DNA of 60,892 nucleotides from Thermoplasmata archaeon (GCA_030041175.1 JASHOK010000052.1:1-60892), one strand, 5' to 3'. Shown: positions 53,101 through 60,247, counted from the first letter of the stretch. The notes: generated by a model not told the origin, from the letters alone. Numbers and translations are program-made.

Positions 53101-56100
53101 ATGATGCCGGCGTGAACGAGACGATCCTGGGCATCCCCGGGGTCTACAACGCCTCCAACAGCCCGAGCACCGCCTACGTCTACACGGTCCAGCTGCACGA
53201 CCTTCTGCCGTGGGCCCAGTACAACGTCTCGTACGGGCTGTATGCCGACCGGGGGTGCCTGGGCGAGTCGCTGATGCAGTATGCTCCCGGCGGCTTCGCC
53301 ACGCCTCCGGCCCTCGGCCTGACCGAGACGGACCTGCCGTACGATTCGATCACGGGCGAGGGCGGTGGTGCGCAGTTCTCCTGGAACGTTCCGTCCTACT
53401 TCCTCGGGCTCCACCCGACGCTCGTCAGCGGTGGACTCGCATATTCGTACTCCGGCGGTGCAGCCGTTGCGCCGCTCAATCAGAGCGAGTTCTACTCGCC
53501 CGGAGGGCTATCCCCGGAGAACCAAGCAATCAACCTCACTTTACCGGAGGTGAACGTCAGCTACAGCGCCACCTTGTGGCTGAACTACAGCTACAAGAAT
53601 CCCGCCGGATCGGGGACGACCAGCGTTGCGGCAGAGAGTCCCACCATCTCGTTCGTCTACCAGCTCGATAGCTCCGGCGACGGTCTCACGAACCTCGAGA
53701 AGTCGAACGGCTGGGTCGTGGCGCTACCGAGCACCCAGACGTTCGAAGGGATCCCGCTATCGACCTCCACCAGCCTCGTTACCGCCGATCCGTACGCCTG
53801 GGCGACCAACGGCCTCGTCAACGATTACGTGGAGAAGGAGTACGACTTGAACGCCCACACGCTCGACACCGCCGACAGCGGGATGCTCGACACCTGGAAC
53901 CTGACCTTCAGCCTCGGCTCCAGCGACAGCTGCCCGGCCGACTTCAGCTGCTTCACCGACACCGCCGCCAATCCGTTCAATGAGAGCCAGTACCCGGGCG
54001 AGTCGCCGACCGGAGGTCCGGTCCACACCAACACGTCCGCGCCCCGGTATCTGCTGGACGACAGCGTTCCGTACGACGCGACGGTCCTCTGGGAGGGGAA
54101 CACGCTCGCATACCTCCAGGAACTCATCCAAACCGAGACCTGGGGGGAGAGCTTCCGAGGGTTCATCGGCTCCTATGACGGGAGCTACACGCTGACCGTC
54201 TGGGGGAAGCTCTCCTGGGGTGCCGACCCGCTGGTCTCCTCGTCGATCCATGACGGCATCGCGGACGGTACGAGAGTCGACCCGGCGAGCGCGGTCGACA
54301 TCGAGATCAGCGACCTGAACGCGACCTGCTCGGGACTGAGTTCGGGCACCGGCTGGGCGGTCAAGTTCACGCCGCGGAACGGGAGCGCGACCTCGGGCGG
54401 GGCGGAGTTCTCGAACTATTCGCAGCCGGCGATCAGTTGCGGGAGCAGCTCCTCGGAGAAAGTGGCCAACTACAACGTTGCCCTTCCGATCAGCCAGCTC
54501 TACGCGACGCAGACGATCCAGATCTCGGTCATCGCCAACGAGAGCAAGAAGCTGACTCCGCTGGCGTTCAACGGCACCGCCAACGAAAAGAACCTGACCT
54601 TCAACCTGTTCGGGAAGGCGGCCAGCTACTCGTTCACCGGCTCCGGCTCTACGCACGCCACGCTCAGCTTCACCATCGCCACGGTCGCCATCGGCGGGAA
54701 GGCGCCGACGTACCTGTGGCTGCCCGACGGGAACGGCACGGTCAATGGGCTGCCGAATGGCCTGGAACGCTACACCGGGGAGCAGTCGTTCGACCTGGTG
54801 GTCGTGAACGCCTCCAGTTCCATCTCTATCACGGGCGTGCCGGACTTCTGGTCGAGCAGTTCGACGTATGGCATCGCCCTCGATCCCGGCCTCAACAACT
54901 TCCTGATCCCTCGGGAGGAGTTCCTGAACACAAGCTTTGGCCGGGGCGTGCTGGAGAACTCGACCGAGCCCTACACGAACACCACGGCCAGCCCCCCGTT
55001 GATCATCAGCGGGGGGGACGAGAACCTGATCTCGAGCTTCGGAGCCTCGACGCTGCTCGGGAAGCTGAGCTGCTACTGGCAGAACCGGGCCGTCAGCTCC
55101 GGCACGAAGACGATCACGGGCTGCGAGGAGTCCGGGACGGCGGCGAAGACGGAGGGAGCGATCTCGACTCTAGCGGTCGACAGTTTGACGCCTCCGGCCA
55201 ACAACACGGGGGGAGTGCCGGGAAGCCCGTATCTGGAGACCCCGGGAGAGGCGGGGGCAGCAGTCCAGGCCATCGTTACTGTGAATGTGACCTCAACGAA
55301 TGAACTCCAGTTGCTGTTGGCCGGCCTGCTGGACAACGTAACTGGTGGTGTGAACGGGACATTCGAGTCGATTACCGGCGAGGTACCGTTCATGGGCCTC
55401 CTAGCCCCGGTGCTCGGGGCTCTTGGGAATGCGACAGTGGTGACCGATGGGCTGTACGGGGCTCCCACCGGGACGACGCCCTCTTCGACCACGGCCGGCG
55501 CGCCAATCCTGGGATGGTTCTGGAACAGCCCAATCGGCGTTGTCTACGACAATGCCCTCCACTTTCTCGTATCTGTAGTCGAACTTTCCTGGACACTCGA
55601 GTTCGGCGCATGGGTCTATCTAGCTCATCTGACGCGGGAAGGTTTGGCCCTAGACGGGTTTGTTCTGTCGCGAGCCGCCACGGTACTTGCGGTGGCGGGG
55701 CGGGCCCTCGTGAACATGACAGTCGCTCTACTCAACGTCGTTGGCTCGGCCATTCTCACCGTTTTGTCCCCCGTTCTGGCGCCTTTGGTGAAGCTTGACG
55801 TGACTTATGCTGAAAACCTCGCTAACGTTACGGTTGCGGCTGAAGAGACCTTCTCCGGCGGTACCATCTCCGAGTCAGCGGGGAGGAGCTTCTGGGCCGC
55901 TTTCGGCGGCTCAGTCTTTTACATGGCACTTTCACTTGGCATCGCTGTCGATGTAGTGGTCGCGATCGTAACCGGGCTATCGCTGGGCGGTGGGTTCCTG
56001 GTGGGTGCCGCGTTGTCTGTTGCGTTTACCGCCGCGATAGAAGCAGACAGAAGTCAGGAATCAAGTACTTCAAGCAAGTTAGGCGGCCATCAAACCTTGA

Positions 56101-58759: not shown

Positions 58760-60247
58760 ATGAAACCCCCGGAGAGCTTCGGCCCATGCCCGACGCTGCT
58801 CGGGAAGCTCAGCTGCTACTGGCAGAACCGGGCCGTCAGCTCCGGGTCGAAGACAATCACCGGAAGTGAGGAGGCCGGGACGGCGGCGAAGACGGAGGGA
58901 GCGATCTCGGTGCTCGCGGTGGACAGCTCGACACCCCCCGCAAACAATACCGGGGGGGTCCCGGGCAATCCCTCTCTCGAGACCGCTAGCGAGGCCGGAG
59001 CGGCGGTTCAGGCCATCGTCACCGTGAACGTGACGACGACGAACGAGCTTCAGCTGCTGCTGGCGGGACTCCTCGATAACGAGACTGGCGGCGTGAACGG
59101 GACTTTCGAGTCGATCACGGCCGAGGTCCCGTTCATGGGCTTCCTGGCCCCGGTGCTTGGAGCACTCGGCAATGCGACCCTGGTGACCGATGGGCTCTAC
59201 GGGACTCCCACCAGCACGACGCCATCGTCGACCCCGGCCAGCTCGTCGGTCTGGGGATGGCTGTGGGACTCGGCGGCTGCCGCGGTCCTGACGCTCGCGC
59301 GAGGGATAGTGACCTTAGTCGAGATTGCTTGGACATCGGAGTTGGCCGCCTGGATTTACCTGGCGCACTTGACGAGGGAAGCTCTCGCACTCGATGGCTA
59401 CGTACTCTCCCGGAGCGCGAACGCCCTAGCACAGGCCGGGTCGGAACTCGTATCCGCAGCGAAGTCGGCCCTGGATTTCATCATTGAAGTAGCGGACTCA
59501 CTGCTTGAAACCGTCTTGGGTCCGGTCCTTCAAGCTCGCACGGGGTACGCCCAGAACACGCAATCAGCCCTTTCGCTTGCGCTCAACTCAACCAGCTCGA
59601 CAACCGGGAACATCAGCGAAGCAGGCGCTGGCGCAGTCTGGAATGCATTTGCCGGGGCGCTCTTGGCGCTCGGTCTAGTCGCGGGATTCGCTCTTGAGGT
59701 TACCTTCGTGGCAATGGAGGCGGTCCCTATCGGACCAACGGTCATCATTGGTCTGGTTGTCGGGATCCTGCTGATGACGTTACTCAGCGGTATCTTTCCA
59801 CAGGTCACTGACTTCATAGATTCTGGCCTCGTTTATCTCGTGGAGGGCTCGGTCAATGCTTCGGCCCCTCAGTCATCCAATCAAGGCTGGTGGAGGACGC
59901 TTGCCGACGCCGTAGGGTGGTTCGACACGGGCCTCTCAACCAACACTGCGGCGCAATCGCTTCGGGTCGCAGTCAGCAAGGACGCCGGGGGAAAGTTAAC
60001 TAACACGGCAGTCGCTTTCGCGCTGGCCGTGATCGGAGCGGGCCTGGAGTTCTCGACCAGAGCCATACCGGCTTATGCGAAGGATCTCGCCATTGCCGGC
60101 CTTGTCGCATCGACGTTCAGCATTGTGGCAGATGGATTTTCGCTCTATTATGATGCCGCGGAAGGCCCCGCAGTCAAGGACGTTGATTACAGCACCCTCG
60201 CCCTCGATGGCGCAAACTGGGGCCTGGCCCTGAGTGTGCTAGCATGA
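58760..60247 (+). CDS. orphan C-terminal cassette, paralogous to residues ~1629-2127 of the giant protein
   Basis: TLLGKLSCYWQNRAVSSG...NELQLLLAGLLDN...VTDGLYG is roughly 85-90% identical (by eye) to the giant protein over ~135 aa. It then diverges into a hydrophobic Gly/Ala-rich region of similar architecture. Candidate starts are GTG 58745 and ATG 58760. The ORF-track start at 58565 was rejected because it overlaps the upstream gene. Confidence 0.65.
   Translation: MKPPESFGPCPTLLGKLSCYWQNRAVSSGSKTITGSEEAGTAAKTEGAISVLAVDSSTPPANNTGGVPGNPSLETASEAGAAVQAIVTVNVTTTNELQLLLAGLLDNETGGVNGTFESITAEVPFMGFLAPVLGALGNATLVTDGLYGTPTSTTPSSTPASSSVWGWLWDSAAAAVLTLARGIVTLVEIAWTSELAAWIYLAHLTREALALDGYVLSRSANALAQAGSELVSAAKSALDFIIEVADSLLETVLGPVLQARTGYAQNTQSALSLALNSTSSTTGNISEAGAGAVWNAFAGALLALGLVAGFALEVTFVAMEAVPIGPTVIIGLVVGILLMTLLSGIFPQVTDFIDSGLVYLVEGSVNASAPQSSNQGWWRTLADAVGWFDTGLSTNTAAQSLRVAVSKDAGGKLTNTAVAFALAVIGAGLEFSTRAIPAYAKDLAIAGLVASTFSIVADGFSLYYDAAEGPAVKDVDYSTLALDGANWGLALSVLA
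58791..59263 (+). repeat. junction repeat, copy 2 (start of orphan cassette)
   Basis: See copy 1. This copy keeps host-like GC-rich third positions (for example gtc acc gtg aac gtg acg acg acg aac gag). Copy 1 has AT-richer ones (gtt act gtg aat gtg acc tca acg aat gaa). Confidence 0.9.

Follow-up and report, generated by a model that had tools for sequence, protein, structure and literature searches.

A direct repeat shared by a giant surface-protein gene and a downstream orphan tail in a Thermoplasmata contig, with signs of past recombinational exchange

Organization of the locus

A 60,892-nt contig of a Thermoplasmata archaeon (GCA_030041175.1, JASHOK010000052.1:1-60892; the whole of it is referred to as the window) carries a gene for a giant surface protein and, downstream of it, a second and truncated copy of the C-terminal module of this protein (the orphan). 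The two are linked by a 473-nt direct repeat within which recombinational exchange has taken place. The genes follow each other in the order giant gene, partner gene 1, a 390-nt spacer, a gene of 406 amino acids (aa), orphan, partner gene 2 and contig end, the latter lying 67 nt past partner gene 2 (Table 1).

The giant protein has a hydrophobic anchor at its N-terminus (aa 34-63), followed by a Ser/Thr/Gly-rich body of about 1600 aa. The protein contains 55 N-x-S/T sequons, of which the body accounts for 45, compared with 21±4 in whole-protein shuffles, and it is probably glycosylated. Its C-terminal module begins at aa ~1630 and is composed of a conserved, sequon-bearing region of about 160 aa (J region), a predicted long helical hairpin and a hydrophobic variable end with several transmembrane (TM)-like segments (aa 1838-1881, 1914-1961, 2039-2066 and 2108-2127). 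Homology to the ortholog P0002 ends at aa 1953. An AlphaFold2 model of the tail, calculated with 38 sequences, was all-alpha from residue 164 at low confidence (predicted local distance difference test, pLDDT, 51), and a helical, membrane-embedded structure rather than an enzyme is predicted for the variable part of the tail. The giant protein, tails, partners and 406-aa gene had no meaningful match in sequence searches against Pfam, NCBIfam, PADLOC and PDB; when the giant protein and three homologues were scanned with Pfam, a weak fn3 match or TIG domains were all that was returned. An Asp-box/BNR-like motif (SSDGGANWTG) is encoded at ~51400 (aa ~415 of the giant protein), and similar motifs are present in the homologue P0003, which hints at a beta-propeller domain below Pfam detection.

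Table 1. Coordinates of the features in the window. ORF, open reading frame; GC3, G+C content at third codon positions; L006, contig of a sister strain (see text).
Feature	Position	Strand	Basis or remark
Giant surface-protein gene, 2127 aa	50163..56546	+	ORF; homologues P0002-P0004; profile match aa 1612-2127
J-region repeat copy 1	55048..55520	+	inside full-length giant gene
Inferred recombination breakpoint versus L006	55125..55131	+	max-chi2 on informative sites
Tail type 1, variable hydrophobic part of resident module	55521..56546	+	GC3, homology limit, TM-like segments
Partner gene 1, 197 aa	56543..57136	+	start overlaps stop of giant gene (GCATGA)
Intervening gene, 406 aa from GTG (375 aa from ATG 57621)	57528..58748	+	coding-like composition
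Orphan C-terminal module, 495 aa	58760..60247	+	intact ORF from in-frame ATG
J-region repeat copy 2	58791..59263	+	inside orphan; GC3 0.84
Partner gene 2, 193 aa	60244..60825	+	GCATGA overlap with orphan
Haem-copper oxidase subunit I	3623-5305		
tRNA-Pro(GGG)	8396-8470		
Family-B DNA polymerase	35687-38761		
aEF-2	41157-43358		

The direct repeat and the orphan module

The repeat is the conserved 5' third, i.e. the J region, of the ~500-aa C-terminal module. A first-pass annotation of this DNA had described the two copies as free of indels and separated by a constant offset of 3743 nt, and alignment reproduced this exactly. Both copies lie on the plus strand, contain zero indels relative to each other and are identical at 384 of 473 positions (81.2%). 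When the 60.9-kb window was compared with itself at E ≤ 1e-6, a check which the annotation had suggested, this repeat was the sole internal pair obtained (55034-55526 / 58774-59269, 80.6%, E 5.6e-130). Its further claims of a nearly invariant beginning and of mostly synonymous differences were likewise confirmed: the initial 55 nt contain a single mismatch (55067, G/C), 62 of the 90 differences fall on third codon positions, and Nei-Gojobori counting yielded 63.3 synonymous and 26.7 nonsynonymous differences, corresponding to proportions pS of 0.49 and pN of 0.078 (pN/pS 0.16). The abrupt 5' edge was also recovered, as identity across the 150 nt upstream was at chance level at the same offset (17-27%); the single match there is the 9-nt GAGCTTCGG, which is shifted by one codon (SFGAS versus SFGPCP). 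Similarity had further been expected to fade to the protein level by ~55.7/59.4 kb. Nucleotide similarity between the copies stops at ~55526/59269, and protein similarity reaches both stop codons.

Divergence between the main copy (in the giant gene) and the orphan copy is uneven. In the first 120 nt of the repeat pS was 0.13-0.26, at 55167-55346 it was saturated (0.70-0.83), and further downstream it was 0.32-0.39. The first 120 nt differ from the following 180 nt with a Fisher p of 7e-8, based on approximate counts of synonymous differences and sites, and the longest exact tract shared by the copies is 35 nt. Against a distant ortholog (L001), pS was 0.5-0.8 throughout, the initial 120 nt of J included, so that the low values between main and orphan in that stretch (0.09-0.32 in this comparison) reflect recent common ancestry. 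A nucleotide-level constraint such as RNA structure or a recombination signal was also considered for the near-identical first 120 nt, and was dropped because pS versus L001 is normal there.

The ATG of the orphan sits 12 nt past the stop codon of the 406-aa gene, and the database gene call (P0153) comprises 500 aa. The orphan matched a profile hidden Markov model (HMM) of the C-terminal module over positions 13-512 (E 3e-210), the orphan being among the five sequences from which the HMM was built. It can be aligned with the module of the giant protein over the full length (46% aa identity over 509 aligned residues), with 85% identity in J, and is 5'-truncated about 10 codons before a YWQNRA motif. 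As the annotation had proposed, the second copy is a C-terminal cassette that lacks its 5' part and is followed by a partner gene of its own, and this architecture is found again in three distant relatives (L003, L007 and L014). The notion of a conserved junction was correct in that the conserved part is shared with the giant gene; it does not stand as a mere lead-in to unrelated toxins, since the modules are homologous throughout. Orphans have no N-terminal anchor or signal sequence, yet they retain the sequon-rich J region, which in the giants is presumably extracellular. Because of its in-frame ATG at 58760 and its intact ORF, the orphan may not be silent. Some variation was found within the orphan itself: a Logan contig (L013, SRR21679857) differed from window positions 59946-60892 at three sites, each within the variable portion of the orphan's tail (one Ala-to-Thr and two synonymous differences), whereas a second contig of the same run (L005) was identical to the window. 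This contrast points to microdiversity in the orphan.

Both partner genes are translationally coupled to the tail before them by the GCATGA overlap. Both partner proteins have the same architecture, i.e. two TM helices followed, in partner 1, by a mostly-beta domain of about 110 aa, without BLAST-detectable similarity between the two. Partner 1 matched a partner HMM with an E-value of 5e-56 (it is one of the eight sequences used to build the HMM). These eight, the two of the window and six from related loci, share a short N-terminus, two TM helices, a beta-rich domain with a "GA..V.I" motif and one invariant Trp, and a C-terminal helix, while most pairs have diverged past BLAST detection. One of the eight matched bPH_6 at a sub-threshold E of 0.01. 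An AlphaFold2 model of the partner, based on two sequences, showed a PH-like order of secondary structure elements at low confidence (pLDDT 57), as in bacterial PH-domain membrane proteins of the bPH_2/bPH_6 type, where a PH-like beta-sandwich capped by a helix comes after two TM helices, and Foldseek searches with this low-confidence model returned noise only.

The composition of the intervening 406-aa gene is coding-like (GC1/2/3 0.60/0.46/0.67). Among 5.8e9 proteins it matched only itself, it was found in none of the other loci fetched, and it had no match in Pfam, NCBIfam or PADLOC; there is no indication of a recombinase. Just 5' of it, at ~57490-57526, lies an AT-rich, TATA-like stretch (CGTATATCAA, ATTTAGCTTACTAATCC).

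A recombination breakpoint in a sister strain

A contig of a closely related strain (L006) holds the 3' 2.9 kb of the same giant gene and is 95.8% identical to the window over 53658-55047. Within the repeat, L006 follows the main copy through 55130 (97.6% identity), and 7 of 8 informative sites through 55124 agree with the main copy and one with the orphan. From 55131 onwards the relation is reversed, L006 sharing the orphan state at 54 of 70 informative sites and the main state at 16. The max-chi2 breakpoint was placed at 55124/55131 with a permutation p of 0.004. Over 55131-55520, identities were 77.9% for main and L006, 79.2% for main and orphan, and 87.7% for orphan and L006. The sister strain remains orphan-like for ~100 nt past the repeat and then continues into a third tail type, which is followed by two further partner variants and then by housekeeping genes. 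Because L006 changes from main type to orphan type at the breakpoint and ends in a third tail, exchange inside the repeat demonstrably occurred while the two strains diverged; and because it tracks the orphan past 55131, a close relative carries this giant gene with an orphan-type J region fused to it. As an outcome that would speak against its proposal, the first-pass annotation had named independent evolution of the copies without gene-conversion tracts; the mosaic of pS and the breakpoint speak for past exchange within the repeat, while ongoing switching was not seen. Likewise, the strain comparison that it had suggested revealed an orphan-type J on the giant gene, but the tail of L006 is a third type and not tail 2.

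Between orphan and L006, pS is patchy, with 0.00 over 60 nt next to windows of 0.71 and 0.43, and this looks like short conversion tracts. Two near-identical strains thus carry three tail/partner types, with the exposed body of the giant protein 96% conserved between them and the membrane part and the partner varying. The simple form of an explanation in which the orphan is the displaced ancestral tail was ruled out, as the orphan J is 88-90% identical to L006 and not 96%. Downstream of its cognate partner, L006 contains tandem extra partner genes without tails (3013-3510 and 3650-4162), which are 30% identical to each other and were likened to orphan immunity genes; such an extra partner gene is also present in L001 (17274-17552).

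Tail/partner cassettes in related loci

A word-indexed search returned three homologues of the giant protein only. An HMMER search with the tail profile yielded 403 cluster representatives at E ≤ 1e-3, of which 201 had E ≤ 1e-30. The matches listed included 67 giants of 1500-2750 aa with the module at the C-terminal end, and 70 proteins of less than 800 aa in which the match started at varied profile positions. A scan of GTDB species representatives with a three-sequence tail alignment found only L006; a five-sequence tail alignment was too divergent for scanning loci. Exact-protein look-ups of the giant and of the orphan gave no further contig, and a metagenome scan with the orphan protein gave no relative, hence neither variants in the population nor a deletion product. 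No description of the giant/tail family was found in the literature.

Direct repeats of the J region between adjacent cassettes recur in two further lineages of this family. In L003, which encodes a giant protein with 29% identity, the order is giant, 158-aa partner, orphan tail, truncated partner and insertion sequence (IS), and giant and orphan share a direct repeat of 410 nt with 74% identity (15780-16187 / 17629-18032). In L007, a giant fragment, a tail, a partner and a second tail split by a stop codon follow each other, with a 681-nt repeat of 93.8% identity between the tails (10051-10731 / 12167-12847). L014 is arranged as tail, partner, tail, partner, and the ATG of its orphan overlaps the stop codon of the preceding partner gene. 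In addition, solitary tail-plus-partner units occur distant from giant genes (L015/L016 and L009-L012), some of them after a gene on the opposite strand. A two-TM partner that co-varies with the tail was present in every case. In four independent instances (window, L007, L014 and L015/16), the 5' end of the orphan lies at most ~20 codons upstream of YWQ(N/D)RA; truncations are deeper in L003 and L009. These loci show that the cassette arrangement is general in the family.

Several of these loci showed further peculiarities. In L003, an opposite-strand DDE transposase gene (19412-21046) abuts the 3' end of the orphan-tail ORF, which itself ends in a two-TM, partner-like stretch that is seemingly cut off. 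In L007 (a JGI contig), three copies of another repeat (7477-7643, 14295-14468 and 15445-15500; 56-174 nt, 79-98% identical) flank the array of cassettes and the fragment of the giant gene. The four metagenome-assembled genomes (MAGs) represented by L009-L012 carry an identical, truncated 385-aa tail (P0095) and two partner-like genes beside urocanase and NUDIX genes; L010 and L006 belong to one MAG.

Base composition

In the window as well as in L006, housekeeping genes and the body of the giant gene have a GC3 of 0.87-0.90, compared with 0.64-0.74 for all variable tails, the partners and the 406-aa gene; for both tails, both partners and the 406-aa gene of the window, values of 0.64-0.69 were noted. 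Tail type 1 has a GC3 of 0.64, against 0.87 in the gene body, and over 55000-60892 the overall GC content sinks from ~68% to 57-61%. In the main J copy, GC3 is 1.0 over the first 84 nt and 0.74 past 55131, where the orphan has 0.83 and L006 0.82. These values past 55131 fit the cassette at the main position being the more foreign one.

Interpretation and alternative explanations

The explanation we favor, at a probability of roughly two in three, is that tail and partner form an exchangeable cassette, that the repeat is chiefly the footprint of recombinational exchange, and that the pair would act in effector/immunity or recognition in the manner of contact-dependent growth inhibition (CDI) or Rhs systems. 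The variable membrane-embedded part of the module co-varies with the two-TM partner encoded directly downstream, and the cassette would be made up of module and partner. Regarding the direction of the event, we infer that a divergent, low-GC3 cassette, comprising the 3' portion of J together with tail 1 and partner 1, now occupies the expressed position, that a crossover ~80 nt into J would have joined it to the resident gene, and that the 406-aa gene probably came along with it. A second, truncated cassette is located 3.7 kb downstream. The geometry of the deletion proposed by the first-pass annotation is correct: an equal crossover would remove 3743 nt, including the 406-aa gene, and leave the giant gene fused to the orphan's tail and partner 2, and the repeat may still be a possible, though weak, substrate for it. 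As a footprint of cassettes acquired in the past the pattern is explained no less well than as a device for switching in the future. As to function, the system would work as a polymorphic pair with a membrane-acting tail, and the most economical guess would be either an effector that acts on membranes together with an immunity protein in the membrane, or a pair involved in recognition.

Several observations weigh against this explanation. None of the contigs and proteins searched carried the giant body joined to tail 2, as expected from the deletion, and partner 1 would also be lost in the deletion. With 81% identity and exact tracts of ≤35 nt, the repeat is far below the proven Rhs pair (522 bp, 95%; PMC3967940), so that of the earlier claim of a recombination substrate the past exchange is upheld by the L006 breakpoint ~80 nt into the repeat, and a good substrate is not. 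The orphan J is only 88-90% and not 96% identical to L006, and the low GC3 could result from weak or relaxed codon selection in the cassettes instead of a foreign origin. Furthermore, the tails are mutually homologous and have no toxin domain recognisable by Pfam, NCBIfam or PADLOC, and because both structure models have low confidence (pLDDT 51 and 57), the effector/immunity assignment is drawn from the architecture.

Alternatively, the orphan could be an independently expressed tail that forms a membrane complex with its partner, the J region being kept by a shared domain need and recombination being incidental. An independent function is conceivable because the orphan is intact (495 aa) with an in-frame ATG 12 nt after the previous stop codon and because solitary units exist elsewhere, remote from giants and partly behind an opposite-strand gene (L009-12, L015/16). 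The pN/pS of 0.16 in the repeat, the maintained ATGA coupling of the orphan to partner 2 and the operon-like overlap of the orphan ATG with the preceding partner's stop in L014 are in line with it as well. However, purifying selection may predate the truncation and stem from the full-length gene, orphans lack an anchor or signal while they keep a presumably extracellular, sequon-rich J, and starts scattered over J, deep truncations and a split ORF (L003, L009, L007) form the pattern of remnants. As it also leaves the mosaic breakpoint of L006 unexplained, we consider this explanation unlikely. A simple duplication in tandem, at the locus itself, of the gene's 3' end and the partner, with ordinary divergence and neither exchange nor switching, would account for two copies in the same orientation whose tails are homologous over their full length. 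It is very improbable in view of the mosaic synonymous divergence, 0.09-0.3 in places and saturated in others, and of L006, in which the main type gives way to the orphan type within the repeat and the tail is of a third type; moreover, an unrelated gene separates the copies, and the partners have diverged past BLAST detection while J is 85% identical in protein.

Since the contig is metagenomic and ends 67 nt past partner 2, and related contigs (L001, L005 and L013) break at or near repeats too, two strain alleles of one locus might have been concatenated by the assembler. The independent Logan contig L005 is, however, 100% identical to the window over 56839-58820, spanning the 3' end of partner 1, the 406-aa gene, the unique junction 58749-58790 and the orphan repeat's initial 30 nt; it ends 30 nt into the repeat, as a branch of the k-mer graph would predict. 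The 5' edge of the orphan, moreover, meets unrelated DNA and not gene body, and the same architecture is found in several unrelated assemblies, which makes an artefact highly implausible.

A more specific version of the exchangeable-cassette explanation would be a lineage-specific, contact-dependent polymorphic system, in which the giant, glycosylated surface protein presents or delivers a membrane-acting module, a two-TM, PH-like partner neutralises or recognises it, and cells diversify the pair through J-region recombination with cassettes that are bounded by YWQNRA and either stored or acquired horizontally. We put this forward tentatively, as somewhat less probable than even. If true, it would be an archaeal counterpart of CDI/Rhs of independent origin. 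The full genetic signature of polymorphic toxin-like systems is seen here in a sizeable unannotated family of 403 cluster representatives, with no known protein families involved: the body of the giant is conserved and its tail hypervariable, the partner co-varies, orphan cassettes occur, their boundary is linked to a motif, and an exchange breakpoint has been mapped between sister strains. The locus bears on how archaeal genomes switch cassettes, and the tail/partner pairs of the window and L006 offer concrete material for tests of contact competition or kin recognition in wall-less archaea.

Comparison with known systems

Orphan modules of cdiA-CT/cdiI are known from CDI loci, and in Yersinia pestis Microtus an orphan became joined to cdiA through a deletion of 3,557 bp (PMC3150448). 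As in these CDI loci, the family described here has 5'-truncated tail-partner modules downstream that retain varying lengths of upstream homology (window, L003, L007 and L014, an architectural match only); boundaries lie near a short motif (VENN in CDI, YWQ(N/D)RA here), arrays contain IS elements (L003), and tail exchange is visible in strain comparisons. Unlike in CDI, the host is an archaeon without an outer membrane and without CdiB: no CdiB-type gene was present among the called neighbours in the window or in L001-L004, although neighbouring ORFs were not each scanned with Pfam. The tails are mutually homologous and predicted to be helical and membrane-embedded, whereas CDI tails are unrelated enzymes; the conserved stretch lies downstream of the motif, inside the cassette; and the orphan has a start codon. 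No TPS domain, FHA/haemagglutinin repeats or DUF638/VENN were found by Pfam in the giant protein and its three homologues, and NCBIfam gave no match.

The Salmonella LT2 Rhs locus resembles the window in its geometry, as a direct repeat of ~0.5 kb is shared by the full-length gene and an orphan tail downstream of it; by crossover the main gene acquires the orphan tail, and its own immunity gene is lost. For the Salmonella repeat, switching has been shown experimentally (PMC3967940), while the window repeat is known from its sequence. RHS/YD repeats and the PxxxxDPxGL core-end motif were not found, as there was no Pfam RHS match. The mechanism of CDI/Rhs orphan activation that the first-pass annotation had invoked is therefore matched in the orphan-cassette architecture and not in the hallmarks of CdiA or Rhs or in a deletion product, and because no CdiA- or Rhs-defining domain is present, the system is an analogue of CDI/Rhs and not a member.

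The closest published archaeal analogue is VARTIG, which differs in domains and taxon. It is restricted to Thermococcales and consists of a large secreted or surface protein with a C-terminal part made hypervariable by recombination and with variable downstream genes (PMC8416519). A hypervariable C-terminus of a big archaeal surface protein and an organisation like that of polymorphic toxins are common to both, but in VARTIG the variable domain is an Ig domain and the downstream genes also encode Ig domains, in contrast to the helical membrane module and the two-TM partner of Thermoplasmata. The defining feature, an arCOG07710 large protein with a hypervariable C-terminal Ig domain, was not recovered, as the tail had no Ig or CARDB match. 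In polymorphic toxins in the broad sense, diverse and often unrelated C-terminal folds are swapped onto a conserved N-terminal body (PMC3482391); the tails described here vary sharply past the conserved region, yet are homologous over their full length. Polymorphic toxin-like systems have been predicted in archaea, none of which had been characterised experimentally as of 2021 (PMC8416519).

With respect to layout, the tail and partner of the window are similar to two bacterial arrangements. In Escherichia coli EC93 CdiA-CT/CdiI and in pore-forming colicins, to which they have no sequence or fold match, a variable hydrophobic tail is accompanied by a co-varying small integral-membrane immunity protein. 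Mycoplasma MgPar/RepMP combines a wall-less host with a big surface-protein gene and truncated copies that are able to recombine into it; there, surface-exposed epitopes vary and no partner co-varies, whereas in the window the membrane part and the partner vary.

Other features of the window

The window is archaeal, as it encodes family-B DNA polymerase (PolB), aEF-2, an ADP-forming acetyl-CoA synthetase and subunit I of a haem-copper oxidase; its GC content there is 65-72%, and its nearest named relative is the Thermoplasmata MAG JOPF056. Together with tRNA-Pro(GGG), the oxidase, PolB and aEF-2 indicate an aerobic, high-GC Thermoplasmata lineage. PolB is located directly upstream of the giant gene in L001, while in the window it lies 11 kb off on the opposite strand.

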